From Candidatus Uhrbacteria bacterium (GTDB taxonomy: Bacteria > Patescibacteriota > Patescibacteriia > JACQSD01): 35,326 bases of DNA. The notes below the pieces were generated by a model, which searched no databases, had not been told where the DNA came from, and saw only the letters and a program-made list of their open reading frames with translations. The position numbers and the translations under genes are program-made. Where the stretch lies: the NCBI GenBank assembly GCA_016206165.1, contig JACQSD010000025.1, forward strand, positions 1 through 35,326, read 5' to 3'. Positions 11,802 to 33,766 of this stretch are shown here, one piece after another (position 1 is the first letter of the stretch; every line of letters begins with the position of its first letter).

Positions 11802-13283
11802 ATGTTCACATTCCCATCACACATTGGTAAAAAACTCGCGAAGAAAAAGATCACGTGGATTCGCGATCAAGAATGGTACCCGAAGTCTTTTCAGGGCTGG
11901 GCTGGACTTTTGATTATTCAGGGTGCGGGCGCGGTTGCTGCCACATTGAAACGAATGCCGCAGGCGATGCGGTTTGGCGCGATGACCGTGGAAGGCACGC
12001 AGAGCTCATGGTACTGGAATGTCGCTGAACAGCGGCGCGTGCGGCCGATCCTTATTACAAAGTTGCGCAAAAATTCTGCATGGGCGCGTATGATTGTCCG
12101 GAAGTTTTTTGTGGCATGGCACGCGTTTGATCGGACGGTAACACGGGTATTGCATCAAGATTTTTCGAGCCTTTCATTACGACAGCTCGGAACGTTGTAT
12201 ACCGAGTGCGTTGATGCAGCGCTTGTTCAGGCCTCATACGGGTATATCGTCGAACCATTCTTAACCGCAGGGGAGGAAGATTGGTTGGTTGCGGCGATCC
12301 GCGATGCACTGCCAGAGAAAATCGCGACGGCGCGCGTCGAAGAGATTACTCGCGTGTTGACGACGCATACGATTCCCACATTCTCACAAGAAGAGGCATG
12401 GTCGCGCGCCGCGCTCGCCAAGAAAGCGCGAGGGCGTGTGTTTGATCGCGCACTGAAGGCGCATGTGGAAAAATTCGCGACGATGCGGGGGAATTACTAT
12501 GATGTGCCGCGGCTTACAGAAAAAGAAGTGCGTGCATCATTGCGAACGTTTGATGTGCATGGTGCGGAGGAGAGCCAGAGGATGATGCGTCGTACTGCTC
12601 GAGCGAAAGCCCGCATCGTAAAACAGTATCGTCTTCACGCGCTCGCATCACTCCTTGATGGTGCTGAACAATTTGCGCACATGCAGGATTATCGGAAGTG
12701 GGCAGTGACAAAGGTGAATGACGTTGTGTTCCAGCTTCTTGATGCAATGGCGCCGCTCCTTTCCGTATCGGCAACGACACTTCGTTACGCAACGCCGAAC
12801 GAGATTGTTCGCGCGTGCATGGGCAAAAGAATAGATTGGAAATCAGTGGGAGAGCGCAGTGCAGGGACATTGTATTGGTGCACCGCGAGCGGCGTCACTG
12901 TTTATCAAGGCAAGGCATTGCGCGGATTTGACGCCAAGTTTTTTCATGGCAGTGCAGGCGTGAATAAAGTATTGAAAGGAACAACCGCAATGCCGGGAAA
13001 AGTGCGCGGGCGCGTGCGCATTGTGTATGGCCGTCTCGAGTTTGCGGCGTTCAAGAAAGGGGAGATCCTCGTAACCAATAATACAACGCCGGAGTTTGTA
13101 CCAACAATGAAACGCGCGGCTGCGATTGTCACCGAACAGGGCGGCATCACCTCGCACGCAGCGATCATCTCCCGTGAACTCAAAGTCCCTTGCATCATCG
13201 GGACAAAAGTCGCCACCAAAGTTTTCAAAACTGGCGATCGCGTGGAAGTTGACGCCGAGAACGGAGTTGTAAGGAAGATATAA
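11802..13283 (+). CDS. Paralogue 1: novel N-terminal domain plus C-terminal phospho-His swivel (PEP-utiliser mobile) domain
   Basis: C-terminal GKVRGRVRIV...GEILVT...VTEQGGITSHAAIISRELKVPCIIG...VEVDAENG; alternative GTG start at 11784. Confidence 0.9.
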   Translation: MFTFPSHIGKKLAKKKITWIRDQEWYPKSFQGWAGLLIIQGAGAVAATLKRMPQAMRFGAMTVEGTQSSWYWNVAEQRRVRPILITKLRKNSAWARMIVRKFFVAWHAFDRTVTRVLHQDFSSLSLRQLGTLYTECVDAALVQASYGYIVEPFLTAGEEDWLVAAIRDALPEKIATARVEEITRVLTTHTIPTFSQEEAWSRAALAKKARGRVFDRALKAHVEKFATMRGNYYDVPRLTEKEVRASLRTFDVHGAEESQRMMRRTARAKARIVKQYRLHALASLLDGAEQFAHMQDYRKWAVTKVNDVVFQLLDAMAPLLSVSATTLRYATPNEIVRACMGKRIDWKSVGERSAGTLYWCTASGVTVYQGKALRGFDAKFFHGSAGVNKVLKGTTAMPGKVRGRVRIVYGRLEFAAFKKGEILVTNNTTPEFVPTMKRAAAIVTEQGGITSHAAIISRELKVPCIIGTKVATKVFKTGDRVEVDAENGVVRKI

Positions 13284-13290
13284 CCACTCT

Positions 13291-13944
13291 ATGCGCACGC
13301 TCGCATTCATTGATGCATCAAATCTCTTTTATGGCGGTGAGAAGAGTTTAGGTTGGAAGATTGATTATCAAAAGTTACTCCAGTATCTTCGCGAGAAGTA
13401 TCAGGTTGAGGCCGCATTTTATTTTGGTGGCGTTGAGATACATAATTTTCAATTTGATTACCTTGCGAACGATACAGTACCGATTGATCTGCTCGTGTCG
13501 CATCTCTCGCGACTCGTGCACGAGCGCGGGGACACATTGGATGATGCCGCATTATTGCTCTTGAGTCGACATCTTGCGCGTGTCCGATTCTATGTGCGAC
13601 TGCAAGAGTTCGGTTATCAGCTGCGCCTGAAGCCGGTCAAATTGTATACCAATGATGACGGTACGACTCGGCGGAAGGCCAATTGCGATGTCGACATGAC
13701 ATTTGTTCTCATGAAGGAGCAGGAGCATTTCGATCGCGTCATCATTCTTTCTGGCGATGGAGATTTCTTACCAGTTTTGAAGCATTTACGAAAGGAGGGT
13801 AAGGAGATCATTGTTCTTGCCCGTGGGCCTCGGGCAGCCCGTGAGATTCGACAGTTTGCAGGGGGAAACTTTCGAGATTTTGAGTATCTGAAGTATCTTT
13901 TGAAGATGGAAGATGAAGTAAATAAACGGAGGGGACTCATATAG
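13291..13944 (+). CDS. NYN-domain (LabA/DUF88, PIN-like) nuclease
   Basis: FIDASNL, KANCDVDM and LSGDGDF acidic motifs. Confidence 0.9.
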   Translation: MRTLAFIDASNLFYGGEKSLGWKIDYQKLLQYLREKYQVEAAFYFGGVEIHNFQFDYLANDTVPIDLLVSHLSRLVHERGDTLDDAALLLLSRHLARVRFYVRLQEFGYQLRLKPVKLYTNDDGTTRRKANCDVDMTFVLMKEQEHFDRVIILSGDGDFLPVLKHLRKEGKEIIVLARGPRAAREIRQFAGGNFRDFEYLKYLLKMEDEVNKRRGLI

Positions 13945-13969
13945 AATCCCCTCCACGTTTAGTACTTTT

Positions 13970-13999
13970 ACTATAGCAATCATCATGATATTGTGTCAA
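13970..13999 (-). promoter_or_regulatory. Antisense sigma70-type promoter facing the NYN 3' end
   Basis: TTGACA (13999-13994)-18 bp-TATAGT (13975-13970) with TG extension. Confidence 0.55.
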
Positions 14000-14051
14000 G
14001 AGCAGCCTGACAGAGCAGCCTGATACAGGGCAATGACGAGATTTTTACACT

Positions 14052-15440
14052 ATGACTTCACCATGGAAAAAATTTATTGCGCGGGAAGGGGTTGATGTGT
14101 TGACGATTTCATCGTTGGACATTGTTTTCTATGCCTGCATTCGGGAGTACGACAAGAAAACGCGGGAGCCGTTCTTTACCCGCGTGCAGGATCGTGTGCT
14201 CACGCATTATCTTTGCGTGGACCCATTGCCGGTGGGAAGAAAGATTTATCCGATCTTCTTTAAAACTCCTGCGCATGTACAGCGGTACTATCGCGAAGGA
14301 TTAAAATTTTTATCGCATGTACGGAGGATAACACGTGCATGGAAAAAGAAAGCAGCGCGGTCGGATCATGCATGGCAGCTTGCTGCATTTAAGGAATTCC
14401 GAAAACAATTTTTGTACGTCAATTATACTTTCAGCATCTGGCCGTGGTGGGGGATTGAATCGTGGCAGACCGATGCGGATGCGTTGTTCAACACGTTGAT
14501 CGAGCGTCGTGGGTTGCAGGATCGCAGAGACGAACTCCTTGCGTCTATTTATCATCCGTGGAAGAAGACAGCGATCATCGAACTCCAGGATCACATGCGC
14601 CATGGAGTAGCGATCCCCAAGCTGCTGCAGCGGTATCAATTCCTGCGGAGCTGGTCGGTCGTGTGGTATCGTCCGATTAACAAGCAGTGGATCGAGGATT
14701 TCAAGAAACAAAATATCGCGGGTGCGCATATGAAACTATTGCCACGTGCAGCTCTGGCGCGTCTCTTGCGGCCGACAAAAAAAGAGCGATGGTTTCTTGA
14801 TATCGCACCATACATTATTTTTTTTAAGGATTGGCGCGATGATGTGCGACGTACGCACGTTTACGAATGGTCGTTTTTCTGGGACGCATTAGCAGAACGT
14901 TTTCACGTCGAACGGAATGACCTCGGGTATCTCTCGTTTGATGAGATGGAGCAGGCAATCAAGACAGATCATTTTCCTGTGGAGACTGTTGCATATCGAA
15001 AGAGTCATCCATGTATCATCACGACGAGCGGGAATGATCGCAATATGACGGTGCATGACAAAAACATCCGACGGTATCTTTCGATTATCAATGCGGTTGA
15101 TCATGCAGCAGCGAAGAGTATTGCGATCACAGGGCTCATTGCACAGACCGGAAAGGCACGCGGTATTGTGCGAATCCTAAAAACATATCACGACATTAAA
15201 AAATTCAAGCAAGGCGAAATCTTGGTTGCGAATACGACGCATCCGAATTATCTCCCAGCAATGCAAAAGGCAGCCGCGTTTGTGACGAATGAGGGGGGCA
15301 TCGTGAGTCATGCCTCGATCGTCGCCCGTGAACTGAAAAAGCCGTGCATCGTCGGCACAAAAAATGCGACTGACATTCTTAAGGATGGCGATGTAGTAGA
15401 AGTCGATGCGGAGCGCGGAATTATTAAGAAAATCTCCTAA
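14052..15440 (+). CDS. Paralogue 2: N-terminal domain plus phospho-His swivel domain
   Basis: VTNEGGIVSHASIVARELKKPCIVG. Confidence 0.9.
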   Translation: MTSPWKKFIAREGVDVLTISSLDIVFYACIREYDKKTREPFFTRVQDRVLTHYLCVDPLPVGRKIYPIFFKTPAHVQRYYREGLKFLSHVRRITRAWKKKAARSDHAWQLAAFKEFRKQFLYVNYTFSIWPWWGIESWQTDADALFNTLIERRGLQDRRDELLASIYHPWKKTAIIELQDHMRHGVAIPKLLQRYQFLRSWSVVWYRPINKQWIEDFKKQNIAGAHMKLLPRAALARLLRPTKKERWFLDIAPYIIFFKDWRDDVRRTHVYEWSFFWDALAERFHVERNDLGYLSFDEMEQAIKTDHFPVETVAYRKSHPCIITTSGNDRNMTVHDKNIRRYLSIINAVDHAAAKSIAITGLIAQTGKARGIVRILKTYHDIKKFKQGEILVANTTHPNYLPAMQKAAAFVTNEGGIVSHASIVARELKKPCIVGTKNATDILKDGDVVEVDAERGIIKKIS

Positions 15441-15449
15441 CCGCGCGGA

Positions 15450-16973: not shown

Positions 16974-17909
16974 ATGGCTATCCGACACCTTATCAACTCA
17001 TCCGATCTCACGAAAGCAGACTACGACGAAATGCTCCGGCGGTTTCGTTTTTTTGTAAAGAACGGAATCTCACCGGATCTCGCACGTGGGAAGATTGCCG
17101 CAACGCTCTTTTTTCAGCCGTCAACACGTACGATGAATCTGTTCCAGATCGCGATGCTTCGGATGGGCGGTGGCTGGATTGGTACGGTTGGAGAGAAGGG
17201 GCTCTCGATGGAAAAGGGTGAGACGCTCGAAGATACCGTGCGCGAGTACAGTTGTTTTGCGGACATTATTGCGTTACGTCACCCGGATGATGATTCTGCA
17301 GAACGAGCAGCAAAGGCGTCGTTTGTCCCGCTCTTGAATTGTGGGAGCGGATCGCGCGAGCACGCGGTCGCAGTCCCATACGTGTTGTGCGAAATGGCGT
17401 ACTTTTTGAAAGATCGCCCATTACAAGGATTGAAGATTGGAATTTATGGAACACCAGAAATCAATCGCGTCACGAAGGCAATGGTGCCAATTTTTGGAAT
17501 GTTCGGCATGGACCTTGTTGTGGATGACCTCGGACATTTCCCGATTCCGAAGGATATTGAAGAAAAAGCAAAAGCATATGGATTGAAAGGTTTGCGCTAC
17601 GACAAGCTCGAGAATTTTATCGGTGATGTGGATTTCCTTTTCCTCACGCGTGGACTCCAAAAGGGGATCATCCCACCGGACAAGTTCCCGAAAGAAAAAG
17701 AAGAACTGATTTTGAAGAGTTATCAGACAATTACCACGGAGCACATGAAGAAACTGCGCAAGGATGCGTTCCTCTTCATGTTGAAGCCACGAATATTTGA
17801 GGTTGATAAAGCAGTGGATGCTGATCCACGCTGCACGCATTCAAAACAAGAGCCATACAAGGAACTCGGCGCTTCGATGCTTACATTTTACCTCGACATT
17901 AACGTTTAG
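16974..17909 (+). CDS. ATCase/OTCase-family carbamoyltransferase with divergent active site
   Basis: LFFQPSTRT, KGETLEDT and ALRHP present; HPTQ and HPLP motifs replaced. Confidence 0.8.
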   Translation: MAIRHLINSSDLTKADYDEMLRRFRFFVKNGISPDLARGKIAATLFFQPSTRTMNLFQIAMLRMGGGWIGTVGEKGLSMEKGETLEDTVREYSCFADIIALRHPDDDSAERAAKASFVPLLNCGSGSREHAVAVPYVLCEMAYFLKDRPLQGLKIGIYGTPEINRVTKAMVPIFGMFGMDLVVDDLGHFPIPKDIEEKAKAYGLKGLRYDKLENFIGDVDFLFLTRGLQKGIIPPDKFPKEKEELILKSYQTITTEHMKKLRKDAFLFMLKPRIFEVDKAVDADPRCTHSKQEPYKELGASMLTFYLDINV

Positions 17910-17944
17910 TGTTCGAGCGGGTCGAGAACATTCATAAAAAGAAT

Positions 17945-17976
17945 GAACCCCACGCGCGTTTCCGCACGTGGGGTTC
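17945..17976. terminator. Hairpin between convergent genes
   Basis: gaaccccacg...cgtggggttc 10-bp stem; T-rich tail on the minus strand. Confidence 0.75.
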
Positions 17977-18006
17977 GTTGTTGCTGAGGTTCTGTCGAGC
18001 GCCTCT

Positions 18007-19239
18007 CTAACTGGTCATGAGGAGCAACCAGTAGAGGACACCGCGCCAGAACTGTTCCGGATCCGGGTTGAACGTCGGGGTGTGGTGGTCCCCCGACTCC
18101 GGACGCTTCGCGCCGAGCATGAAGAAACTTCCCGGCACCTTCTGGAGGTACCACGCGAAGTCTTCACCTCCGAGCTCGAGTCCCTGGGTCTTCGTTTCCT
18201 GACCAGCGCTCTCGAGCAGCGCTTTGACCCCGGCCACGGACTCCGGCGTGTTGATGAGTGCCGGATGCCCGTAGACGTACTCCCAGCCATCGACCACCTT
18301 GTCGTTCTCGATGGCCTCCACCTTCGCGTCCGGGTAGAGCGCGACGATGGCGCGGACGAACGCCTCGAGTTGCTTCGCGAACGCCATGCGTTCGTCCATC
18401 GGAAGGACGTTCCGGTTCGCGAACCACATGTCGACATCCGACGGCCGGATGTTCGATCCGGTTCCCGCCTTGAAGACCGCCGGAACAAGGCTCGAAGGTT
18501 CGGTTCCCCCGAGCGTGCGGAGCGCGAAACCGTTGAGCGCGTTGCAGAGGTGCACGCCGATGTCGATCGCGTTCGAGCCCCGGTGCGGGCTCATGACGTG
18601 ACCGCCCGAACACCGGACGCGAACGCGGAACCGATCCGAGTTCGCCATGGCACCCCCAGGGCGAGCCTGGAAGACGCCGGGAGTTCCTTCCTCGCTCGTC
18701 CAGATGTGGAGGCCATGTGCCGACTCGATGCCGTCGCAGACCCCGCCTTCGAAGACGAGCTTGTATCCCCCCGACGGCGTCACCGGGTTCTCCTCCGCCC
18801 GCTGGAACACGAATCGGAGATTCCTGGACGGCGTTACGCCACATTCGGCCATGGCGAGCATCGCAGCCATGAGCATGGCCGAGTGCACGTCGTGACCGCA
18901 AGCGTGCATGACGCCCGCGTGCTCGGAGGCGAACGAAAGGCCGGTCGCCTCCTGGATCGGAAGAGCATCGACGTCCGCACGGAGCAGACGTCGGGGCAGC
19001 TTCGGGTCGACCGTGTAGTCGATCCAGATCCCACCGTCTCCTTCGACGATTTGCGTCCCGCCGAACTGGAGTTTCGGAAAGATGTCATGGGTGACGCCGT
19101 GGGTGATGTATTCGAGGGTCGTTGTTTCCTCTTGGCTGAAACGGACACCCGGATGCTGGTGCATCCACTGGCGCCACTCTTGCATCCGCGCCACGACGCT
19201 GTGTGCCGCGCCGACGAGGTGCTGCATTTCGGTCAACAT
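18007..19239 (-). CDS. M20 family amidohydrolase (second copy, GC-rich)
   Basis: MHQHP, RADVDALP, MHACGHD, FQRAEE, GLH, GGH, GGEDF, HHTPTF; SD AAGGAG. Confidence 0.92.
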   Translation of the reverse strand: MLTEMQHLVGAAHSVVARMQEWRQWMHQHPGVRFSQEETTTLEYITHGVTHDIFPKLQFGGTQIVEGDGGIWIDYTVDPKLPRRLLRADVDALPIQEATGLSFASEHAGVMHACGHDVHSAMLMAAMLAMAECGVTPSRNLRFVFQRAEENPVTPSGGYKLVFEGGVCDGIESAHGLHIWTSEEGTPGVFQARPGGAMANSDRFRVRVRCSGGHVMSPHRGSNAIDIGVHLCNALNGFALRTLGGTEPSSLVPAVFKAGTGSNIRPSDVDMWFANRNVLPMDERMAFAKQLEAFVRAIVALYPDAKVEAIENDKVVDGWEYVYGHPALINTPESVAGVKALLESAGQETKTQGLELGGEDFAWYLQKVPGSFFMLGAKRPESGDHHTPTFNPDPEQFWRGVLYWLLLMTS

Positions 19240-19392
19240 AATTCCGTACTCCTTCTGTCTGTGGTGGGCATTTTGCCCTGGTTGATCCGCGCCGTTCCAG
19301 GTGAATCTACGATTGTATTCTCAAGCGTCCCTTTCGAAGACGCTGAAATCGGATGAGTTTTGAGAGACCAAACAATAATTCTCCAGCCCGAC

Positions 19393-19421
19393 AATTTACC
19401 ATTTCGTCTCACTATTGTCAA
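19393..19421 (-). promoter_or_regulatory. Sigma70-type promoter for the minus-strand amidohydrolase
   Basis: TTGACA (19421-19416)-17 bp-TAAATT (19398-19393) with TG extension. Confidence 0.6.
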
Positions 19422-19424
19422 GTA

Positions 19425-19467
19425 TTTCGTCAAGTTTTCGTCAAGTTTGTCGAGTTTTCGTCGAGTT
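19425..19467. repeat. ~11-bp tandem repeat, about 4 copies
   Basis: tttcgtcaagt tttcgtcaagt ttgtcgagt tttcgtcgagt. Confidence 0.8.
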
Positions 19468-19553
19468 CTGATTCGTTAACTCCCATACAGAATTTCGATA
19501 CAAGAATATGCCATAAAAGTATAGATCACCAGTACACGTTATAAATTCAACAG

Positions 19554-19587
19554 AACGTCTTTTGATCCGATCGGATCAAAAGACGTT
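19554..19587. repeat. 34-bp perfect palindrome, copy 1
   Basis: aacgtcttttgatccga|tcggatcaaaagacgtt. Confidence 0.97.
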
Positions 19588-19656
19588 TGGTGCAAAGAAT
19601 CGTCGTTTATGATACAATTGTATGCAGAGTATTGAGGTATACCGGTCTCTATCGCT

Positions 19657-20226
19657 ATGCGTAAAAAAGAAGAGAAAAAGCAACTATCACTGACAAAACA
19701 AGTACTATCCTTTATCGCTGCAAAATGCATTGAGGCAGGCGCTGGATTGATCACGGCAACGGTGAACTCCATCGAGTACCCACACGTTTTTCCAGAGTTT
19801 GTGGAAGGTATTCGCGCTGAGCGTGCATATTGGGAGCACAAGCGTGTGCACCGTGCGATACAGGAATTGCACAGGCATAAATTTATTACGATGCGCAAGA
19901 AGGGGAATAAACTCGTCATCCAACTTACTGAAGACGGCCGTATTCATTATCTGCGTCAACAAATACAATGTGCATCTTCATGTATACCTGGAGAATGTAT
20001 TATGGTTACCTTCGATATCCCGGAAGCGGCGCGGAGCGCGCGACTGCATTTCCGTCGTTTTCTGAAAGACTGCAATTTCTATCAATTACAAAAAAGTGTT
20101 TGGGTCTGTGAGAAAGCAGTACTACCAAATTTATTGCAGTTCATTGATATCACGAATGTGGGGCAATGGGTCCACGCGTTTGTTGCCAAAGAAGTCAAAC
20201 ATCCAAAGCTCAAGAAGAAAAAATAA
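19657..20226 (+). CDS. PaaX-like protein: winged-helix segment plus Cas2-like ferredoxin-fold domain
   Basis: RVHRAIQELHRHKFI...IQLTEDG (wHTH wing) followed by VTFDIPE...RRFLK...QLQKSVWV. Confidence 0.85.
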   Translation: MRKKEEKKQLSLTKQVLSFIAAKCIEAGAGLITATVNSIEYPHVFPEFVEGIRAERAYWEHKRVHRAIQELHRHKFITMRKKGNKLVIQLTEDGRIHYLRQQIQCASSCIPGECIMVTFDIPEAARSARLHFRRFLKDCNFYQLQKSVWVCEKAVLPNLLQFIDITNVGQWVHAFVAKEVKHPKLKKKK

Positions 20227-20230
20227 GAGA

Positions 20231-20264
20231 AACGTCTTTTGATCCGATCGGATCAAAAGACGTT
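20231..20264. repeat. 34-bp perfect palindrome, copy 2
   Basis: Identical to 19554-19587; identity extends through tggtg (39-bp direct repeat, to 19592 and 20269). Confidence 0.97.
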
Positions 20265-20289
20265 TGGTGATAATACGCTTTTTATACGT

Positions 20290-23075: not shown

Positions 23076-23091
23076 CCTCGCCCACGCGAAG

Positions 23092-23112
23092 GCCCCGGGT
23101 TTATCCCGGGGC
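23092..23112. other. GC-rich hairpin (REP-like or terminator)
   Basis: gccccggg-tttat-cccggggc. Confidence 0.6.
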
Positions 23113-23152
23113 GACGAAAGGAATTGCTCGTAAATTAACGGAGTGAAAAAAT

Positions 23153-23998: not shown

Positions 23999-24036
23999 TA
24001 TTCTTCATTGCGGATTACGACTATAGATTATTGATT

Positions 24037-25326: not shown

Positions 25327-25350
25327 CAGGTGCTTGCGTCATGCTATACT
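25323..25350 (+). promoter_or_regulatory. Promoter of the toxin-antitoxin pair
   Basis: TTGACA-16 bp-TATACT with TG extension; followed by repeated (A)AGTATTA/ATTACTA boxes, possible RHH operator. Confidence 0.7.
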
Positions 25351-25379
25351 AGGATTACTAAGTATTAATAAGTATTACT

Positions 25380-25613
25380 ATGCGTACTTCATCTGTCTTA
25401 ACCATCTCACTCCCACCGTCGATGGTCCGCGATCTCGAACGTGTGACGAAAAAGACGCAAATGACGCGCTCGGAACTTCTTCGTGCAGCGTTACGCCGTT
25501 TTTTTGAGGAAGAAAATGCCATGGACGCGATCCGTATTGCGAATACGGAGCGTGCACAAGGAAAACTCAAACTCCTTCCTAAAGGTGGGCTTGCACAACT
25601 TATGCATACGTAG
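25380..25613 (+). CDS. Ribbon-helix-helix (CopG-like) antitoxin
   Basis: LTISLPPSMVRDLE...TRSELLRAALRRF. Confidence 0.85.
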   Translation: MRTSSVLTISLPPSMVRDLERVTKKTQMTRSELLRAALRRFFEEENAMDAIRIANTERAQGKLKLLPKGGLAQLMHT

Positions 25614-25883
25614 ATGGCAGCCATACGTTTTATCTACTACACGTCGCATTTTGTTCGAGCAGCGAAGCGATTACCTGCAGAACTGCAGAGCGCTGCAGAG
25701 GAGCGGGAGTTGCTTTTTCGGCGCAATTGCTTTGATCCGCGACTCAAGACGCACAAGCTCTCTGGAAGACTCCGAGAGCTTTGGTCATTTTCTCTTGCGT
25801 ATAAGTATAGAATTGCTTTTCGTTTTGTCGATGGTACTACCGTAGAATTTGTTGATACTGGAGATCATGATATTTATCAATGA
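25614..25883 (+). CDS. RelE/YafQ-family toxin
   Basis: YTSHFVRAAKRL...LKTHKLSGRL...WSFSL..KYRIAF...GDHDIY. Confidence 0.88.
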   Translation: MAAIRFIYYTSHFVRAAKRLPAELQSAAEERELLFRRNCFDPRLKTHKLSGRLRELWSFSLAYKYRIAFRFVDGTTVEFVDTGDHDIYQ

Positions 25884-25887
25884 TTGT

Positions 25888-26994
25888 ATGCAAGTACTTG
25901 TGTCAAGAATTGATACTATCATCGCGCAGTATGGTCTCAAGCCGGCGACGCGGCGGAGGTTTCCGTTGCTCACGTTGAGTTGCATTGCTGAAGGGTACAC
26001 GCATGTGTTGCGACGCATGTTCGGTATTTCTGCGCATGCAGTCGGCGGGCTTGGGTCGCGCGATGAATGGCACACAATGTTGAATGAGCAGGCGATTGGC
26101 GATGGAGCGCGTGTGCTCATTCAAAAATATGGAGCTGATCTTGACGGAGAAGTTTTTATTCCTGTTCGTGCCGCGCTCGTAGCATGGACAAAAGAATGGA
26201 AGGTGATCGAACCGCTCATCACGCAGGATCCACAAAATTTTTTTCAGAGAATCGTTCGCCTTTATCCCACATACCTTGCCTGTCTCGGTCTCTATAATTG
26301 TTTCTGGCGGTACATTGGCGATCGCAGTGATGCTGAAGGATTGTCGAAGAAAGAAATAGATGCTCTTGGTGCAGAGCGCGATATCATGGCAAAAATTTAT
26401 CCTGAAGTTGAATCGCAGATCGCGAGCGCCGTCAAGAATTTTGGAGACGCGGAAGGATTTGACGGTGATCTTTTACGATATGCAACATATCGTGAATGTG
26501 TTGATGGGAAGGCAGACACACATGATCATGAATGGCTTTCTGAACTTGCGCGCAGAAGAGACAGATTCTTCTATCTTTACGCCGAAGAAGGTGCGCGTGA
26601 GTATCTTATCACTCACCGAAAGATGATCGCGGAGATCGAACGACGATATTATACGATTGATACCACAGTGAAAGAGGTGCAGGGGAATATCGCGCATGCG
26701 GGTTTTGTGCAAGGGACTGTTTTTAATCTTGCAGAATGGAAAGGTGCTAAGCCGGAACATTTGGCGCCAGGGACTATACTTGTGGCGGGGATGACACACC
26801 CGAGTGATAGTACGCTCATTCGCGAGGCAGCAGCGATCGTCACGGACGAGGGCGGGATTCTTTGCCATGCGTCCATTCTTGCGCGGGAGTTTAAGATCCC
26901 GACGGTGATCGGCACCAAGATTGCAACACGAGTATTTCATGATGGGGATCGCGTTGAATTCGATGCAGTGAAGGGAATTGTACGAAAGATCTAA
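25888..26994 (+). CDS. Paralogue 6 (short, 368 aa): N-terminal domain plus phospho-His swivel domain
   Basis: VTDEGGILCHASILAREFKIPTVIG. Confidence 0.88.
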   Translation: MQVLVSRIDTIIAQYGLKPATRRRFPLLTLSCIAEGYTHVLRRMFGISAHAVGGLGSRDEWHTMLNEQAIGDGARVLIQKYGADLDGEVFIPVRAALVAWTKEWKVIEPLITQDPQNFFQRIVRLYPTYLACLGLYNCFWRYIGDRSDAEGLSKKEIDALGAERDIMAKIYPEVESQIASAVKNFGDAEGFDGDLLRYATYRECVDGKADTHDHEWLSELARRRDRFFYLYAEEGAREYLITHRKMIAEIERRYYTIDTTVKEVQGNIAHAGFVQGTVFNLAEWKGAKPEHLAPGTILVAGMTHPSDSTLIREAAAIVTDEGGILCHASILAREFKIPTVIGTKIATRVFHDGDRVEFDAVKGIVRKI

Positions 26995-27042
26995 AGCCTC
27001 CATTGTCTTATTCGCGCGAATGGTAGAATAACAAAAGTGACT

Positions 27043-28491
27043 ATGCTAGTGACAAAGAAAATAGATTGGGCGGCATATCAGTTTATTGCCGAGGCGGGGA
27101 GAGCGACGTATTTCCCGATGGCGTATTTTATTATCCACGCATATTGGCGTGCAGCGCGCCATACACAGTGGCCGCTCCGCATTCCCGTGCTTGGCGATTT
27201 TTCAAAATACTCGACACGTTGGCACTATGCGATCCGTGATCCGCACGTCTTTGATCCATATCTCATGCGGTTTCTCATGGCGCCGAAGGAGATGCGTGCG
27301 TTTGAACAATATATTGCAGCGCAGCGCATGCATGTTCGTCATCTTTTTCCTTGTGATACATGCTCCACTGTATCGAATCATGAGCTCGTCAGTGACGTAG
27401 AAAAATTTTATTCTTGTTTTCAGGATCTCATTGTTGCGGCTGGTACACTCCGCTATCTTGATCGCGCGCTTGTTCCTGCGGTGCAGCATGCATATCGCTT
27501 GCACAAAAAAAGAGATGCACTTGTTGCCATAGTCTCCATGGGTGCACAGGTAAGTTTTGCACTCCGCGAAGAATACGCAATGCTTGCGCTTGCTGCGGGT
27601 TTGCAGAAAAGACATGATTCGATCACATCGAGCGCAGCAGTTTCTGGGATCAAGAAAATTTGGAGTACATATCGTTGGTCGTCGTGTGGGTACTATAATG
27701 AGCAGTTGAAAACCATTGCCGTCTATACTACAGAGTTGCGCGCACTTCTCAAACAGGATTCGATACGCGCGTTTCGTGCAATGCGATTCCGTATTCGAGC
27801 GGATCAGCAAAAGCGTCGCGCTGCACTTCGTCTGCTTGAACCGCGTGATCGATCGCTTGGGATTCTCGCAGGACAGGCGACGGTTGCGAAAGACGAATAT
27901 CGCTTTGTCGCGAGTGAACTTATCGGCCGCGCAATGCCGTTGTTTAGGGAGATTGCACGGCGTACGGGATACAGCGTTGATGCAGTGCGCGATCTGCTTC
28001 CAAAGGAAGTTAGAGCACTGCTTCTTGGGAAACCATATCCGTCTGCACTTGTTCGCGCGCGACGGCGTGCAATTGTCATCTATGGTGGGCCTGGATTTTT
28101 TCAAGTACTGCTCGGCCGCGCTGCAGATACATTTGCACGACGACATCTCCATCATGGTGATCGTGATGCAACGACGTGGCATGGTCGTGCTGCGTCACCC
28201 GGGCATGTTCGTGGTACTGCGCGCGTTGTTCTTAACGTGAATGATTTTCACAAAGTAAAGCGCGGGGATATCCTCGTCTGTTTGAATACAAGTCCCGAAT
28301 TTATGCCGGTGCTACGGAAGGTGGCGGGCATCATTGGTGAGGAGGGCGGGATTACTGCGCATGTCTCTGTGGTTTCGCGCGAGCTTGGTATCCCGTGTGT
28401 TGTCGCGATCAATGGTGCGACACTCCACTTAAAAGACGGTGACTGGGTTGATCTTGATGCAGCGCGTGGTATTATAAAGAAGGTGATATGA
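27043..28491 (+). CDS. Paralogue 7: N-terminal domain plus phospho-His swivel domain
   Basis: IGEEGGITAHVSVVSRELGIPCVV; alternative GTG at 27037; TGgTAGAAT upstream. Confidence 0.9.
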   Translation: MLVTKKIDWAAYQFIAEAGRATYFPMAYFIIHAYWRAARHTQWPLRIPVLGDFSKYSTRWHYAIRDPHVFDPYLMRFLMAPKEMRAFEQYIAAQRMHVRHLFPCDTCSTVSNHELVSDVEKFYSCFQDLIVAAGTLRYLDRALVPAVQHAYRLHKKRDALVAIVSMGAQVSFALREEYAMLALAAGLQKRHDSITSSAAVSGIKKIWSTYRWSSCGYYNEQLKTIAVYTTELRALLKQDSIRAFRAMRFRIRADQQKRRAALRLLEPRDRSLGILAGQATVAKDEYRFVASELIGRAMPLFREIARRTGYSVDAVRDLLPKEVRALLLGKPYPSALVRARRRAIVIYGGPGFFQVLLGRAADTFARRHLHHGDRDATTWHGRAASPGHVRGTARVVLNVNDFHKVKRGDILVCLNTSPEFMPVLRKVAGIIGEEGGITAHVSVVSRELGIPCVVAINGATLHLKDGDWVDLDAARGIIKKVI

Positions 28492-29966
28492 GCAAATCTA
28501 TTTTCAAGCAAGTATCGGGAAAACAATGGTACCATCAGCGGTTTGATGGTACGCCCTTGTATATCGGGGTGATTGCAGAGTCAGAGTTTCGACGTGAGCA
28601 TCGCAAACCCGCATTGCAAACACCTCGCGTTCGCGTTTGTTTTTTCAAGAATCGAACATCAGACTGGCATCTCACAATGGAAGACATTGAACGTGGCGCG
28701 CGTGCCATTGTGAAACAAGTAAATCATGAACCGCATATTAGTACTCAGCTACTCCGAGCATGGAGGAAAGATGAGGAAGCATTTCAGCGTTTTTTCGATT
28801 CGTTTCAAGGAATTTCGTTACGCTCTCTTTCCGATGAGAAGTTACTCGCGCTCTTTCGGACGTATTATCGCCTTGGTATTGCACGATTTACATCATCGGT
28901 GATTATTGATCACTTTGCATTAGGGACTGATACGTTGATTGCGGATATGCTCCGCAAGGAACTCGGGAACCTTGGATCTGAGTCTATATTCACTGACATT
29001 GTCAGCGGATTAACTGCGCCCGTGCATCAGTCGTTCATCAATGCAGCAGAGCTCGAATTACTCAGGATTGCGCTTGCGTCCGCGGTACAACATCCGCGAC
29101 TGCTCGCACGATGTCAGGCGCGCTATTTTTGGATCAGGAATAATTATGTTGACGTGCATGTACTCACTGCCCGTGACTTCGCAAAGGATCTTGCGGTGCT
29201 CCTCAAATCTAAAGCCGATGCACGGAAACAGTACGCGCGAATTTATGCAACACCGCGCCTCAATGCAGAGCGAAAGAAAAAATTGCTTCAGAAATATCAT
29301 CTCTCTCCGCTCTTGCGACGGCTTTTAAAAATTTCCGAAGACTTTACATGGTGGCAGGACGAGCGGAAGAAGGCGACGTATCTCAATATCCACATGGGTG
29401 CACAGATTCTTGGGGAGATGGCGCGTCGTCGTGGCATTGATCCAGAGTATACCAAGTATCTTGTGTTGCCAGAGGTGGAGCATTGGTTCATAAAAGGGAC
29501 CCCATCATTAGCGATGCTCCGTCAACGCCGAAAATCATGTGCATTTGTTGTTACCACAAAAGGATTCCGTTTCTTCACAGGCAGTGATGTTGAGAAGTTA
29601 CACAAGCGTATGTTCCCACCAACGCAGCGAGACATGGTGAATGATGTTCGTGGTCTCACTGCATCGACAGGGAAGGTTGTTGGGCGCGTGAAAATTGTGA
29701 GCTCGGTTCGCGATATTGGCAAAATGCAGCAGGGTAATATTCTTGTTTCGGTGATGACGCGTCCGGATTACATTGCAGGGATTAAGAAAGCAGCGGCGAT
29801 TGTTACGAACGAGGGCGGAATCACGTGCCACGCAGCGATCATCTCGCGCGAACTCGGTATCCCATGTATTATCGGTACAAAAATCGCGACTGAAGTTTTT
29901 AAAGATGGTGATTTAGTGGAAGTGAACGCGAATCACGGGGTCGTCACACGAATATTACACGTATGA
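28488..29966 (+). CDS. Paralogue 8: N-terminal domain plus phospho-His swivel domain
   Basis: VTNEGGITCHAAIISRELGIPCIIG; ATGA overlap. Confidence 0.9.
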   Translation: MSKSIFKQVSGKQWYHQRFDGTPLYIGVIAESEFRREHRKPALQTPRVRVCFFKNRTSDWHLTMEDIERGARAIVKQVNHEPHISTQLLRAWRKDEEAFQRFFDSFQGISLRSLSDEKLLALFRTYYRLGIARFTSSVIIDHFALGTDTLIADMLRKELGNLGSESIFTDIVSGLTAPVHQSFINAAELELLRIALASAVQHPRLLARCQARYFWIRNNYVDVHVLTARDFAKDLAVLLKSKADARKQYARIYATPRLNAERKKKLLQKYHLSPLLRRLLKISEDFTWWQDERKKATYLNIHMGAQILGEMARRRGIDPEYTKYLVLPEVEHWFIKGTPSLAMLRQRRKSCAFVVTTKGFRFFTGSDVEKLHKRMFPPTQRDMVNDVRGLTASTGKVVGRVKIVSSVRDIGKMQQGNILVSVMTRPDYIAGIKKAAAIVTNEGGITCHAAIISRELGIPCIIGTKIATEVFKDGDLVEVNANHGVVTRILHV

Positions 29967-31399
29967 AAAAATTATCCGTACAACAGATTATTGGCGTCGT
30001 CAAAAAGTCGCAATGGTTTATCCAAGGGTTCAATGCGTTCCCGCTCTATTTGCATAGCGCGGCAAGTATGACCGGTTGGATGGTGCATCAGGCGGTCGGC
30101 GTGAACTATTCGCACTTTTTTTACGTAGCGCATGAGAGTCGAATGGATATGTATTATGACGAGCGAGATCTTGTGGCCATTGGCGAGGCGTATTATAAAA
30201 AGATTCACAATATACAGGAATTGAACACACTTCGCAGGAAACATCGCGATGCCTACCTTGCGGCGCGAAAGAAGACTGGAGATTTTTCCATAAAAGGCTT
30301 AGGTGGATGTTCACTGAACGAACTCATCGCACTCGCGCAACGCTTGATCAACGAACTCACGATGACGGTGAGCTTTGCACATGTCATCGAAGGGATTGCG
30401 TGGATTTCCGAACGCCGTCTCCATGATTTTCTCGCACAGCGAACGAACGCGAACAAAAAAGACGAGCAACTGTTTTCCTCGCCTGTTGATCCATCGTTTA
30501 TTCTCCGTGCGCAGATGCTCCTTGGCGCAATAAAAAAGAGTGCAGGCGCGGCACGAACACGAAAAATTGAACAGTTTATTCTTGAGTTCGGCTGGTTGGA
30601 TTCGAGTTTTGTTGGAGGGAAAACATTTGATGCACGCCGCGTTCGCGAAATGGTACGTGGCATCAAACATGTCTCATCGCTCGAAGGACTTAAAAGGACG
30701 AAACAACTCAAACTGGCGCGGGCGCGACAGCTGGAGCTTACTCCTGAGGAGACTTTTGTGGTGCGAACGATTGAATTGTGCACGCTCTGGCAGGATAATC
30801 GGAAGGAATTTATTTTGAGCACGATTGCACGGTTTGAGCCGGTGGTTGTCGAGCTTGCGCGTCGCCTGCATATATCTGCTGATGCATTGAAGTGTATTTG
30901 TCCGGCGGAGCTGACAGAAATGAATCTTTCGAGAAAAAAATTTCTTGCAGTACTAGAAAAGCGGTTTCATGGATGTGGGTATTATGTTGTTCGTGATCAT
31001 TTCTTGACGTATCCGGGAAAAGCCTATCGCGATATTGAACAGAAGCTCACAAGCACAAATGAGTCGAAAGTCGGAGAATTTCATGGCACCATTGCGAATC
31101 AGGGGAAGGTAACGGGCATCGTAAAGATTTGCCAGACCATCGAGGATATTGCTAAAGTGAAGGAAGGAGAAGTGCTTGTTGCGTTTATGACGCGCCCGGA
31201 ATTTTTACCCGCAATGCAAAAGGCAGCCGCGTTTGTGACGAACGAGGGCGGGATCACATCGCATGCGGCGATTGTTGCTCGTGAGATGAATAAGCCGTGC
31301 ATCATTGGCACAAAGATCGCGACTGATGTTCTTCACGATGGTGATGTCGTCGAGGTGAATGCGAATCACGGGGTGGTGACCATTATACAGAGAGTGTGA
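29963..31399 (+). CDS. Paralogue 9: N-terminal domain plus phospho-His swivel domain
   Basis: VTNEGGITSHAAIVAREMNKPCIIG; ATGA overlap. Confidence 0.9.
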   Translation: MKKLSVQQIIGVVKKSQWFIQGFNAFPLYLHSAASMTGWMVHQAVGVNYSHFFYVAHESRMDMYYDERDLVAIGEAYYKKIHNIQELNTLRRKHRDAYLAARKKTGDFSIKGLGGCSLNELIALAQRLINELTMTVSFAHVIEGIAWISERRLHDFLAQRTNANKKDEQLFSSPVDPSFILRAQMLLGAIKKSAGAARTRKIEQFILEFGWLDSSFVGGKTFDARRVREMVRGIKHVSSLEGLKRTKQLKLARARQLELTPEETFVVRTIELCTLWQDNRKEFILSTIARFEPVVVELARRLHISADALKCICPAELTEMNLSRKKFLAVLEKRFHGCGYYVVRDHFLTYPGKAYRDIEQKLTSTNESKVGEFHGTIANQGKVTGIVKICQTIEDIAKVKEGEVLVAFMTRPEFLPAMQKAAAFVTNEGGITSHAAIVAREMNKPCIIGTKIATDVLHDGDVVEVNANHGVVTIIQRV

Positions 31400-32811
31400 A
31401 TGATTTTCTTATGCCAAAACGTCTATCAACTATTCCACGATCACATCTTTTTCTCCCCGAGGATCTTCATCTCTATGAGATTCAAAATATTTTTACAGCA
31501 TGCGCACTATGGTTGGAGGAGGGAATGGAATATCAGATTGCAACGTATGATTTGTATGTTCGTGAGATGCCACCACATCGTAATTTTTTAGTGCTCGGTG
31601 GAATCGAAGAGGTGATTACTGGCATTAAACAGTGGAGGTTCAGCTTGAAAGAGATTGAGTATTTACGGAAACACAATCTTGCGACACCGAAACTAATTTC
31701 GTATCTTCGCAAATTTAAATTTACTGGCGATCTCTATGCGATGCGGGAGGGAACTATTTTTTTTCCAGGGGAGCCGGTCATCCGCATTACCGGGCCAATC
31801 TGTGAAGGGAATCTCCTTTCAAATTTTTTAATGACGACGGTATTTGGTAATTCCTTGTATCTTTCAAAAATTATTCGTGGGAAAATTGCATGTGGTAAAA
31901 AACGTTTTATCGCTGCAGGGGGGATGCGTGTGAGTTCATTCGAGACAGCGATGAAAGCGAGTCGCGCTGGCTATATTGCGGGAGCTGATAATGCCTTTCC
32001 AGCATTTTTTCGGAAGTATCGACTTCCACCACCACCACTATCTATTAATGCGTATCATGCGGTGATCAAGTCTTTTCCTACGGAGTTGGAGGCCTTTCGT
32101 GCAGCAGCACGACTGTTCCCAAATCGGCTTCGTCCCATGGTTGATACGTATGATTTTAGACAGGGTGTCGCCAACCTTGTTACTGTAGCGCGCGAACTTA
32201 AAAAGAAAGTGCAACACGTCGCATCAATTACTATTGATAGCGGAGATTTACACAAACGTGCTCTGTATGCGCGTCGGGCATTCGACAGGGCAGGTTTTCC
32301 TGAAATTCAGATATTACTCGCTAGTAACCTCGATGAATATAAAATTTCGGCACTTGAAAAAATGAAGACTCCAGCAGACGTCTATTTGTCAGCAACTGAG
32401 ATTTCAACAGTTTCGGATGCACCAAAAATGGAAATTGTATACAAGATCGCAGAGTTGCGCGATGGAAGAACAGTACGCCCATTGGCAAAACTTGCCGAAG
32501 GGAAGGAAAGCTACCCGGGTCAGAAGCAAGTTTTTCGACGCTATCGAAAAGGGGTGTTCAGCGGGGATGTCATTGGTCTTGTAGGAGAGCTTCATGGGAA
32601 ACCGCTCTTGCAGAAAATGATTTTACGCGGAAAGTCCGTGTATAATCTCCCACATCTTGATACAATTAAATCCTATGTACAGAAGCAACTTGTAATGCTT
32701 CCGGAGCGGTTCAAAAGTATCGATCGGCAGTTTGTGTATCCGGTGACCATTAGCTCGAAATTAAAGATGCTTTTTCATTTGGTAAAGAAAGAGCACGGAG
32801 CAAAAAAATAA
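31396..32811 (+). CDS. Nicotinate phosphoribosyltransferase (PncB)-like protein with divergent active site
   Basis: FTGDLYAMREGTIFFPGEP, VDTYD, DSGDL, LDEY, VYK, PGQKQVFR; GTGA overlap (alternative ATG 31411). Confidence 0.85.
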   Translation: MNDFLMPKRLSTIPRSHLFLPEDLHLYEIQNIFTACALWLEEGMEYQIATYDLYVREMPPHRNFLVLGGIEEVITGIKQWRFSLKEIEYLRKHNLATPKLISYLRKFKFTGDLYAMREGTIFFPGEPVIRITGPICEGNLLSNFLMTTVFGNSLYLSKIIRGKIACGKKRFIAAGGMRVSSFETAMKASRAGYIAGADNAFPAFFRKYRLPPPPLSINAYHAVIKSFPTELEAFRAAARLFPNRLRPMVDTYDFRQGVANLVTVARELKKKVQHVASITIDSGDLHKRALYARRAFDRAGFPEIQILLASNLDEYKISALEKMKTPADVYLSATEISTVSDAPKMEIVYKIAELRDGRTVRPLAKLAEGKESYPGQKQVFRRYRKGVFSGDVIGLVGELHGKPLLQKMILRGKSVYNLPHLDTIKSYVQKQLVMLPERFKSIDRQFVYPVTISSKLKMLFHLVKKEHGAKK

Positions 32812-32815
32812 TATT

Positions 32816-33766
32816 ATGGCTCAAAGTTACATTAAATTTTTTAAGGAGATATCAAAGAAGGACGTCCACATCGCCGGTGGGAAGGGGGCGTCGTTGGGTG
32901 AAATGACGCAGGCGGGGATTCCAGTGCCGCCGGGGTTTGTGTTGACCGCAGCAGCATTTGATCGGTTTATCGAGGAGACGGATCTTGATGTGGAGATCGA
33001 GGCGATATTGAACAAGGTGAACTATAAAGATGTAAACTCGGTGGATCGGGCGTCGAACGTGATTCGTGATCTCATCCACGATGAACGCATGCCAAAGGAT
33101 TTGCAGACGGATATTCTGGGAGCATTCAAGCAATTGAAGGCGAAGGAAGTTGCCGTGCGTTCATCCGCAACGGCAGAGGATTCCTCACAGGCGTCGTGGG
33201 CAGGGGAGCTGGAGACATATCTCAACTCAACAGAAAAGAATGTGATCGGAAATGTGAAAAAATGCTGGTCATCGCTTTTTACTCCGCGCGCCATTTTTTA
33301 TCGGAATGAAAAGGGAATGCGCAAAACAAAGGTGAGTGTGGCGGTCGTGGTGCAGGCGATGATTCAGTCGGAAATTTCAGGTGTCATGTTTACGGTGCAT
33401 CCGGTAACAAAGGATCGGAACCAGATGATTATCGAGGCGGCCTGGGGTTTGGGGGAGGCGCTGGTCTCCGGGCAGGTGACGCCGGATAGTTATGTCGTGA
33501 GTAAACGCGATTGGTCGCTCATTGATGTAAGCGTTGCGGAGCAGGCGCGGATGATCGCGCGAAAGACGCTTGGCACCGGAGTTGAATGGAAGCCGGTGCC
33601 AAAAAAAGACGCGCCGAAACAAAAATTGAATGGGAAGGAAATCGTGATCATTGCGCAAATTGGGAAGAAAATCGAGGAGCACTACGGCAAGCCGGAGGAC
33701 ATCGAATGGGCGTATGCAAAGAAAAAGTTCTACATTGTCCAATCCAGGCCGATTACGACGCTGTAG
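32816..33766 (+). CDS. Stand-alone ATP-grasp (PPDK_N) domain of the PEP synthase/PPDK/RPH family
   Basis: GGKGASLGEM, PVPPGF, AVRSSATAED, VVVQAMI, SGVMFT, WGLGEALVSG, DIEWA, QSRPITTL then stop at the domain boundary. Confidence 0.93.
   Translation: MAQSYIKFFKEISKKDVHIAGGKGASLGEMTQAGIPVPPGFVLTAAAFDRFIEETDLDVEIEAILNKVNYKDVNSVDRASNVIRDLIHDERMPKDLQTDILGAFKQLKAKEVAVRSSATAEDSSQASWAGELETYLNSTEKNVIGNVKKCWSSLFTPRAIFYRNEKGMRKTKVSVAVVVQAMIQSEISGVMFTVHPVTKDRNQMIIEAAWGLGEALVSGQVTPDSYVVSKRDWSLIDVSVAEQARMIARKTLGTGVEWKPVPKKDAPKQKLNGKEIVIIAQIGKKIEEHYGKPEDIEWAYAKKKFYIVQSRPITTL

Follow-up and report, generated by a model that had tools for sequence, protein, structure and literature searches.

A stretch of DNA from a Candidatus Uhrbacteria bacterium (contig JACQSD010000025.1 of assembly GCA_016206165.1; 35,326 nucleotides, in full hereafter the window) carries nine genes for putative phosphate-acceptor proteins and one gene for a stand-alone ATP-grasp protein. 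Sequence comparison and structure models make it probable that these belong to a two-component dikinase of the rifampin phosphotransferase (RPH) type, the kind to which PpsAB, CreHI and HpeHI also belong, with one nucleotide-binding subunit common to many acceptor enzymes. The initial annotation, made from the letters of the window alone, had proposed a new system of one ATP-grasp protein serving many acceptors, and had considered it functionally uncharacterised. The one-to-many reading has gained strong indirect support from co-occurrence across genomes and from natural fusions; the split itself turned out to be known, since PpsAB, CreHI and HpeHI have been characterised with the same domain division (PMC12167813). 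What appears to be new is the one-to-many ratio together with the multi-acceptor fusions: full-text literature searches found no description of multiple acceptor genes per ATP-grasp or of multi-swivel fusions.

One ATP-grasp gene and seventeen acceptor genes in a reduced genome

The window is contig C5 of the source genome (G000; 836 kb in 92 contigs, 83% complete). Its nine acceptor genes all lie on the plus strand between 11784 and 31399 and encode proteins of 381-504 aa. In each of them the sole Pfam match is the mobile (swivel) domain PF00391, in the last ~75 residues (E 2.7e-20 to 5.1e-27), with the phospho-acceptor His intact in a GGxxxH motif, while no Pfam match was found in the N-terminal 270-400 residues; the description first given of these paralogues, a divergent N-terminal domain followed by an intact swivel domain, thus stands. 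The first paralogue is present, but its reading frame opens at 11784, and position 11802, where the array had been taken to begin, is an internal ATG. The genes are listed below, the N-domain E values being those against a hidden Markov model (HMM) of the N-domain of the paralogue 8 family.

11784 to 13283, plus strand: paralogue 1, 499 aa; PF00391 E 5.1e-27 at residues 423-494; GGITSH; alternative ATG at 11802; N-domain E 8.4e-26, residues 18-382
14052 to 15440, plus strand: paralogue 2, 462 aa; PF00391 E 9.2e-27; GGIVSH
20239 to 21753, plus strand: paralogue 3, 504 aa; PF00391 E 1.8e-23; GGILCH; N-domain E 7.9e-12
21732 to 23075, plus strand: paralogue 4, 447 aa; PF00391 E 3.8e-26; GGITCH; N-domain E 5.6e-05
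24031 to 25326, plus strand: paralogue 5, 431 aa; PF00391 E 5.3e-27; GGITSH; N-domain E 0.27
25849 to 26994, plus strand: paralogue 6, 381 aa; PF00391 E 2.7e-20; GGILCH; short class, predicted reduced RPH-like domain
27037 to 28491, plus strand: paralogue 7, 484 aa; PF00391 E 1.6e-22; GGITAH; N-domain E 9.5e-08
28488 to 29966, plus strand: paralogue 8, 492 aa; GGITCH; modelled full-length
29963 to 31399, plus strand: paralogue 9, 478 aa; PF00391 E 1.6e-25; GGITSH; N-domain E 5.3e-20, residues 7-367
32816 to 33766, plus strand: stand-alone ATP-grasp (nucleotide-binding) subunit, 316 aa; PF01326 PPDK_N E 1.4e-105

Paralogue 4 has an internal ATG at 21750, and a start there would leave it with a 4-nt overlap with paralogue 3. 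A Pfam profile search of the whole genome found 17 matches to PF00391, one to PF01326 and none to PF02896, the PEP/pyruvate barrel (PEP-utilizers_C; PEP, phosphoenolpyruvate). Besides the nine acceptor genes of the window there are three on contig C14 and five on C24, and because of these eight additional paralogues the true acceptor to ATP-grasp ratio is 17:1. The 17 acceptors range from 381 to 551 aa, keep the GGxxxH motif without exception (17/17) and amount together to 8121 codons, that is ~24 kb or ~2.9% of the 836-kb assembly.

The ATP-grasp protein, the only PF01326 match of the genome, is a complete PPDK_N domain and nothing else; the protein stops just past the domain, its last residues being QSRPITTL, as had been noted from the translation. 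It aligns end to end with structures of PEP synthase (8a8e_A, E 5.3e-81), RPH (5hv6_A, E 5.3e-64) and HpeI (9goj_A, E 1.6e-58). Residues K23, R115 and E297 are invariant across 46 stand-alone relatives; in RPH, Lys22, Arg117 and Glu297 contact ADP or Mg2+ (PMC4844700), and the near-1:1 alignment range suggests that the three invariant residues, at or near the same numbering, correspond to them. Identity among its best 120 relatives is 66-93%, against 43-56% among the best 120 listed relatives of paralogue 8, and this difference in sequence conservation supports the behaviour expected of a hub with many partners. A PSRP/PDRP-type regulator (PF03618), sought as a possible means of regulation of the Thr before the His, was found in none of five genomes (0/5).

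The acceptors, for their part, are highly divergent. Those of the window are 22-30% identical pairwise, with nearly all of the conservation in the swivel domain, and the N-domains of all 17 are 20-37% identical to each other. The best BLAST matches between N-domains within the genome reach 37-67 bits, whereas 7 of the 17 acceptors match genomes of other taxonomic families at 140-434 bits, in what is a partial genome sample; paralogue 2 has an orthologue with 57% identity over 346 N-domain residues in the genome of a different family (L022). Matches that are weak within the genome and strong across families indicate, therefore, that the paralogues are old, separately maintained lineages and not the outcome of a recent burst. 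An alignment of the paralogue 8 family (48 sequences, namely paralogue 8 and 47 relatives that are 45-59% identical) contains 62 invariant columns.

Among the matches listed, every named relative of the window proteins belongs to the Patescibacteria (Uhrbacteria, Kerfeldbacteria, Buchananbacteria and the Parcubacteria group), and in public annotation such genes appear as 'PEP-utilizing enzyme', 'PEP synthase', 'pyruvate, water dikinase' or 'hypothetical'. Four DNA runs, from one groundwater-metagenome study, are listed for the window sequence, three of them containing 86-96% of the sampled words, and no RNA run containing it was found among the public runs listed. Scans of 19000-35326 for promoters (28 vs 21.4±4.9) and terminators (18 vs 17.7±4.3) gave results at chance level.

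The acceptors resemble the substrate and swivel domains of RPH

The initial annotation had likened the paralogues to the last two modules of RPH and had suggested a structural search with their N-domains; in a search with models of two paralogues, RPH ranked first for both. The AlphaFold (AF2) model of paralogue 8 was built from its family alignment (pLDDT 92.8), and that of paralogue 6, the shortest and most divergent of the window, from 72 relatives found in a 1.84-billion-protein library (pLDDT 95.1). When the paralogue 8 model was compared with the PDB by Foldseek, the top six matches were all Listeria RPH entries (the best four being 5fbu, 5fbt, 5fbs and 5hv1; E 2.3e-13 to 7.8e-12, TMq 0.50-0.54), and the remaining matches spanned the swivel domain only. 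VIA-align, with 48,161 chains, superposed residues 10-490 of the model on residues 327-867 of RPH 5hv1_A (Z 18.9, rmsd 4.9, 414 aligned), a span that comprises both the rifampin-binding and the swivel domains. The paralogue 6 model gave the same first rank by Foldseek (E 6.1e-10), and VIA-align placed its residues 21-381 on RPH 321-866 (5hv1_A, Z 16.9, rmsd 5.0, 280 aligned), RPH being the only high-scoring chain aligned past the swivel domain. On this model the N-domain of paralogue 6 is predicted to be a reduced form of the RPH-like substrate domain, and it is by structure alone that this N-domain is linked to the others.

At the level of sequence, the paralogue 8 N-domain HMM finds 14 of the 17 N-domains of the genome at E<1e-3, often across most of their length, and the N-domain of paralogue 5 is joined to the rest only via paralogue 3 (BLAST 25%, 167 aa, E 5e-11). 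Acceptor sequence profiles align to RPH only from ~residue 700. In many long-class paralogues a pattern search detected the motif [aromatic]x[RQK][DT]xR at 153-163 residues N-terminal of the His. The catalytic residues of the RPH substrate domain are Arg666 and Glu667, with Lys670 and Gln337. The alignment of the paralogue 8 family has Q17, R293 and K294 as invariant residues, which makes Q17 and R293/K294 candidates for the positions of RPH Gln337 and Arg666/Lys670. The ESM Atlas yielded leads of three sorts: clusters bearing the name 'PEP-utilising enzyme mobile domain-containing protein', one cluster in which 21% of the members have Pfam Rph_4th, and some Nanobdellota taxa.

Stand-alone ATP-grasp genes and short acceptors occur together across Patescibacteria

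Comparing ATP-grasp and swivel counts across genomes, as had been proposed, showed that the two components mostly travel together. For a class-level tally, profile matches were counted by genome in 40 relatives of the same class and G000 was added; a stand-alone ATP-grasp frame (~295-400 aa) is present in 16 of these genomes, short acceptors in 16 and both in 15. The 15 genomes with both have 1-17 acceptors against one ATP-grasp, with two identical ATP-grasp copies in G028. The closed genome G013 (1.19 Mb) has 15 swivel matches and one ATP-grasp, encoded at 769 kb, hundreds of kb away from the arrays at 51, 508 and 1018-1033 kb. G003 has swivel fragments only, and the 600-760-aa frames with weak PPDK_N matches of G018, G020 and G030 were left unclassified. 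In a wider sample of 150 Patescibacteria genomes (>=90% complete), 19 have a stand-alone ATP-grasp frame of 312-334 aa, and all 19 also have short acceptor frames, 1-11 each, at ratios of 1:1 to 11:1. By comparison, ten hand-picked genomes in which PPDK_N occurs only in a long frame all have a single full-length enzyme of ~757-991 aa (10/10).

The PEP/pyruvate barrel PF02896 is absent from the window, as first stated, and from the whole 836-kb, 83%-complete assembly. A separate barrel subunit encoded elsewhere, which the initial annotation had named as a way back to an ordinary PEP synthase, was likewise found in none of five array-bearing relatives (0/5), including the closed G013 and the 100%-complete G040, and a control search was positive in 14/14 named genomes. 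Because no barrel was found in G000 or in these five relatives, we regard an ordinary PEP synthase as excluded.

Natural fusions join one ATP-grasp to several acceptors

Further evidence comes from proteins in which the two components are fused. In G023 a stand-alone-type ATP-grasp (E 1e-119 to that of the window) and, after it, an acceptor of the paralogue 6 type (N-domain E 2e-44) form one protein of 685 aa (L023). We then surveyed the 150 best representatives in the protein library matching paralogue 6, ranked by summed score, a ranking that favours multi-module proteins. Single acceptors account for 88 of them and chains of two to three acceptor modules without ATP-grasp for 30; in the other 32 a single ATP-grasp is combined with 2-6 swivel modules, mostly three, and none has two ATP-grasps (one fusion scored as two ATP-grasp stretches has a single domain that was split by the HMM). 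The junctions are ordinary linkers and not read-through stops, the fused ATP-grasps are 53-60% identical to that of the window except in P0266 (41%) and P0247 (36%), and individual modules can be matched to paralogue families of the window (N7 at 1.7e-35 and N8 at 3.9e-40 are examples).

At the DNA level, a genome search with library fusion P0286 located, in the 0.7-Mb, 100% complete genome G248, an uninterrupted frame of 3188 codons (table 11; L033, G248:C15, 2805-12368, minus strand) that begins with its one ATP-grasp and contains seven swivel domains, the full complement of the genome. A single polypeptide with one ATP site and seven carriers would be hard to understand unless one ATP-grasp can load several of them. 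Another library fusion, P0277, had no relative in the genome contigs searched. In P0247 (2648 aa, one ATP-grasp, six swivels) the sequence WGKWASLGE stands where the family has GGKGASLGE; W in place of the invariant G would fit gene calling with TGA as Trp on an organism that reads TGA as Gly, as code 25 lineages do, which suggests that the system extends to those lineages.

Comparison with known dikinases

The closest characterised systems are HpeHI, CreHI and PpsAB (phenylphosphate synthase), a two-component subfamily among the small-molecule dikinases (Dexter et al., PMC12167813). HpeI is the ATP-grasp protein and HpeH consists of an RPH-like substrate domain and a swivel domain; His581 of HpeH is essential, HpeH alone moves phosphate between substrates, and the two proteins form no stable complex and act in trans through a transient one, the authors arguing that such dikinases serve as high-affinity scavenging systems (PMC12167813). 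Like this trio, the window has a separate ATP-grasp gene (~320-390 aa in the known systems) and acceptors with an RPH-like domain and a C-terminal swivel His. The known systems, which release AMP and Pi, are one-to-one gene pairs of aromatic catabolism (PMC12167813), whereas the 0.84-Mb genome studied here has 17 acceptors for one ATP-grasp, and its relatives also include one ATP-grasp fused to 2-7 acceptor modules. The known acceptors are larger (~570-640 aa) and ~45% mutually identical, against 381-551 aa and N-domains 20-37% identical here, and the residue two before the His, reported as Met for HpeH and its homologues, is in 6 of the 9 paralogues of the window the Thr that PEP synthase has.

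RPH of Listeria (RPH-Lm; 5FBS, 5FBT, 5FBU, 5HV1) gives the best structural match when the acceptor is taken whole, the window ATP-grasp matches its entry 5hv6_A, and the two-site swivel mechanism proposed here is that of RPH. RPH is a single polypeptide with one substrate domain, in the order ATP-grasp, rifampin-binding domain and swivel domain, while here the ATP-grasp is a separate gene, and acceptor sequence identity to RPH is 13-17%. Six paralogues scanned with the RPH models NF041857 (cut-off 999) and NF000283 (cut-off 1700) scored 35-75 bits, and the ATP-grasp 296 and 205 bits; nothing suggests rifamycin as a substrate. The NCBIfam PRK08296 models (~570-630 positions) match the swivel part of the paralogues only, far below cut-off. 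These models we take to represent the PpsA type.

PEP synthase is the closest relative by sequence, with homologous ATP-grasp and swivel domains (swivel profile against 8a8e_A, E 8.6e-44). Compared with PEP synthase and pyruvate phosphate dikinase (PPDK), the genes described here have no barrel, a different domain order and an RPH-like substrate domain in the barrel's stead, and with the PEP synthase models TIGR01418 (cut-off 739.75) and NF005057 (cut-off 598) the acceptors reach 71-127 bits and the ATP-grasp 351-363 bits. Because defining features of both RPH and PEP synthase were tested and found lacking, the system is neither. The prodigiosin ligases PigC, HapC (PMC13534948) and RedH have the RPH architecture, each in one polypeptide chain, and activate a substrate so that it can condense. 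Their NCBIfam models score 257 (PigC) and 249 bits (RedH) on the ATP-grasp and also align to the last 170-250 residues of some paralogues (paralogue 3 250-502 with PigC 627-880), all scores falling well short of the respective cut-offs (1300 and 1350). MarK belongs to an unrelated kinase family (PMC12624787).

Neighbouring genes and operon context

Two further genes of the window lie within or next to the acceptor row.

19657 to 20226, plus strand: PaaX/Cas2-like winged-helix protein; PF20803 PaaX_M E 1.5e-13; 13 nt upstream of paralogue 3
31396 to 32811, plus strand: nicotinate phosphoribosyltransferase (NAPRTase; pncB-like); TIGR01513 315 bits vs cut-off 297.4; Pfam NAPRTase_N and NAPRTase_C

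The pncB-like assignment of the initial annotation passed the family cut-off, and its 4-nt overlaps agree with the coordinates (28488/28491 between paralogues 7 and 8, 29963/29966 between 8 and 9, and 31396/31399 between 9 and the NAPRTase gene), as does the 4-nt gap from 32811 to the ATP-grasp gene at 32816. On this arrangement the NAPRTase gene is predicted to be in the same operon as paralogue 9 and the ATP-grasp gene. As a core member of the system it was rejected, being beside an array only here and in G027 (L017) among the fetched loci. The PaaX/Cas2-like protein is possibly a regulator of the system, its membership being uncertain. A 36-nt palindrome with a 16-bp perfect inverted repeat (20230-20265) lies between the end of its gene and the start of paralogue 3 and could serve as operator or as terminator. 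The array of G026, too, has a weak PaaX-like match beside it (L015 946-1425).

Salvage-type genes surround the array of the window: the NAPRTase gene, M20 amidohydrolases, and carbamoyltransferase-like and amino-acid-kinase-fold genes, and upstream there are genes for riboflavin kinase, riboflavin synthase and a metalloenzyme resembling phosphopentomutase. We ran Pfam on 131 open reading frames (ORFs) lying at most two genes away from an acceptor or ATP-grasp gene, from the window and 22 fetched loci; no family dominated, and we counted phosphoribosyltransferase (PRTase) domains in 6, methyltransferase families in up to 5, and M20, NYN and PrgI in 3 each. PRTase-domain genes (~210-235 aa) occur in runs of two to four, interleaved with acceptors, at L005 (G016:C4, 6090-10596) and L017 (G027:C17, 8475-9883). 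In the window, a 281-aa ORF at 23153-23998 was considered as a PRTase on a motif spotted by eye and was dropped, with no Pfam or NCBIfam match and a BLASTP E of 0.21 to the L017 PRTase.

In the fetched loci of five genomes (G016, G021, G027, G032 and G028; L004, L006, L016, L024 and L027, respectively) the ATP-grasp gene is directly upstream of a type IV secretion operon, which runs from an unnamed 424-605-aa protein through a PrgI/VirB3-like protein and an unnamed ~235-aa protein to a VirB4-like ATPase. The same operon is present in G000 on contig C2 (2645-6925), apart from the ATP-grasp gene. The available text of a paper on patescibacterial type IV secretion systems makes no mention of a dikinase gene (PMC12102498).

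Several other features of the window and its sister contigs were seen. A high-GC island at 17000-19500 (0.56-0.57 vs ~0.48 elsewhere) contains a second M20 peptidase gene (18007-19239, minus strand), which breaks the otherwise plus-strand row of genes and of which the plus-strand ORF 17968-19356 is the shadow; the island may have been acquired horizontally. Genes of toxin-antitoxin type border the arrays: downstream of the ATP-grasp gene comes a HicA-domain ORF (137 aa, 33896-34309), and contig C24 ends with one that has a BrnT domain (L002 1-348). An ORF for a 23S rRNA-intervening-sequence protein/bAvd-like protein (10614-10973) lies just upstream of the amino-acid-kinase-fold gene, and long ORFs (647, 355, 553 and 219 aa) in 3-3004 and 4949-7212 have no Pfam match at E<=0.001.

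Proposed mechanism and alternative explanations

What the data show are the identities of the domains, the intact histidines, the 17:1:0 gene count, the co-occurrence across genomes and the natural fusions. Charging in trans, dikinase chemistry and biological role are what we infer from sequence and from analogy; since the domain division matches that of HpeHI, CreHI and PpsAB, their mechanism can be carried over with fair confidence. The 316-aa ATP-grasp protein would bind ATP, and the C-terminal swivel domain of an acceptor would dock transiently on it, so that the swivel His could take the beta-phosphate while AMP and Pi leave; the swivel would then return to its own N-terminal RPH-like domain and phosphorylate the substrate bound there. 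The substrate domain differs from one acceptor lineage to the next and is conserved separately in each, so that each of the 17 lineages, nine of them in the window, presumably has its own substrate. The substrate classes suggested by the initial annotation (scavenged nucleosides, cofactors or antibiotics, or proteins) would be candidates. Co-folding of the paralogue 8 family with the ATP-grasp family gave 0.00 in two runs, with controls not folded, and counts neither way on binding.

Several observations weigh against one shared nucleotide-binding subunit for RPH-like acceptors. Some come from the genome tallies: G019 (99% complete) has a short acceptor, and its only ATP-grasp source is a full-length PEP synthase; G032 has a stand-alone ATP-grasp, and a search at E<=0.001 found no short acceptor in it; a full-length PEP synthase of ~800 aa, whose ATP-grasp could in principle contribute, is present in several of the array-bearing genomes; and the related genomes counted are non-independent samples. 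Others concern the acceptors, as the paralogue 8 family HMM misses the N-domain of paralogue 6 (E 3.7) as well as that of paralogue 5, and the candidate catalytic Arg motif from the pattern search is found in part of the long class and is rare in the short class. Moreover, G248 is the only library-type multi-module fusion checked at the DNA level, and the arrays have no conserved partner, the commonest neighbouring family, PRTase, making up 6/131 ORFs.

For the biological role, we tentatively prefer the high-affinity capture or activation of scavenged small metabolites in a minimal-genome bacterium, a proposal by analogy that could quite possibly be correct; it is favoured because of the scavenging argument made for HpeHI (PMC12167813) and of the salvage-type gene setting, which is a weak association. 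With the same mechanism, the paralogues could instead be a battery of kinases that inactivate antibiotics or xenobiotics, as RPH inactivates rifamycins, each directed at a different natural product encountered in the community or produced by a host. Of the solved structures, RPH is closest to the two paralogues modelled, a defensive repertoire would be compatible with so many divergent substrate domains, and toxin-antitoxin genes and the high-GC island are nearby. We nonetheless consider it unlikely, since the acceptor lineages are old and cross families, which resembles housekeeping and not fast-turnover defence, since the six paralogues scanned reach at most 75 bits with RPH models whose cut-offs are 999 and 1700, and since the neighbours are mostly of salvage type (NAPRTase, PRTases, M20 amidohydrolases and riboflavin genes).

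A second alternative, to which we give very little weight, is that the substrates are not free small molecules but macromolecules or components of the envelope (glycans, proteins or lipid-linked precursors). The family of swivel-His dikinases does include glucan water dikinases (PMC13553574; 10.64898/2026.02.06.704335), and in five genomes the type IV secretion operon lies directly downstream of the ATP-grasp gene. That link is absent in the source genome, however, no carbohydrate-binding or other targeting domain was detected by Pfam in the window acceptors, and the substrate domain is RPH-like, the characterised RPH-type relatives of the papers cited here all acting on small molecules (PMC4844700, PMC12167813). 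The idea of an ordinary PEP synthase or PPDK in pieces, with redundant or decaying copies of its central domain and a barrel subunit elsewhere, agrees with the closest sequence relationship and with public annotation but is extremely improbable, given the missing barrel in the source genome and the five relatives, the RPH fold of the modelled N-domains, the intact His-bearing genes (17/17), the 62 invariant columns of the paralogue 8 family and scores far below the TIGR01418 cut-off.

Implications for ultra-small bacteria

Beyond the shared subunit and the scavenging of metabolites, we put forward as a possibility that Patescibacteria have a modular phosphorylation hub, in which one highly conserved ATP-grasp 'charging station' would serve up to 17 interchangeable, substrate-specific carriers, in trans or on one polypeptide of up to 3188 residues, for a general capture and activation of metabolites from hosts or groundwater. 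If so, trapping would be irreversible and of high affinity, at a cost of two ATP equivalents, and the hub would take on tasks that in other bacteria fall to unrelated kinase families. An organism this reduced is unlikely to retain 2.9% of its genome as acceptors without need, and one nucleotide-binding module for many swivels would be a new use of the swivel mechanism.

There would also be consequences for annotation, because the acceptor and ATP-grasp genes, having no barrel, cannot perform the PEP synthase step, and a PEP synthase label puts a gluconeogenic step into metabolic models. The available text of a 2026 Nanobdellota preprint, a group to which an ESM Atlas lead also points, reports K01007 calls in genomes without upstream glycolysis, in a direction that gene content leaves unexplained (10.64898/2026.05.13.725050). 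If the hub is real, many 'PEP synthase' calls of the K01007 type in ultra-small bacteria, and perhaps in DPANN archaea, would be wrong. The fusion proteins with one ATP-grasp and three to seven acceptors (1+3 to 1+7) are ready-made objects for structural study, and the identities of the substrates would directly show what these uncultivated bacteria take up.

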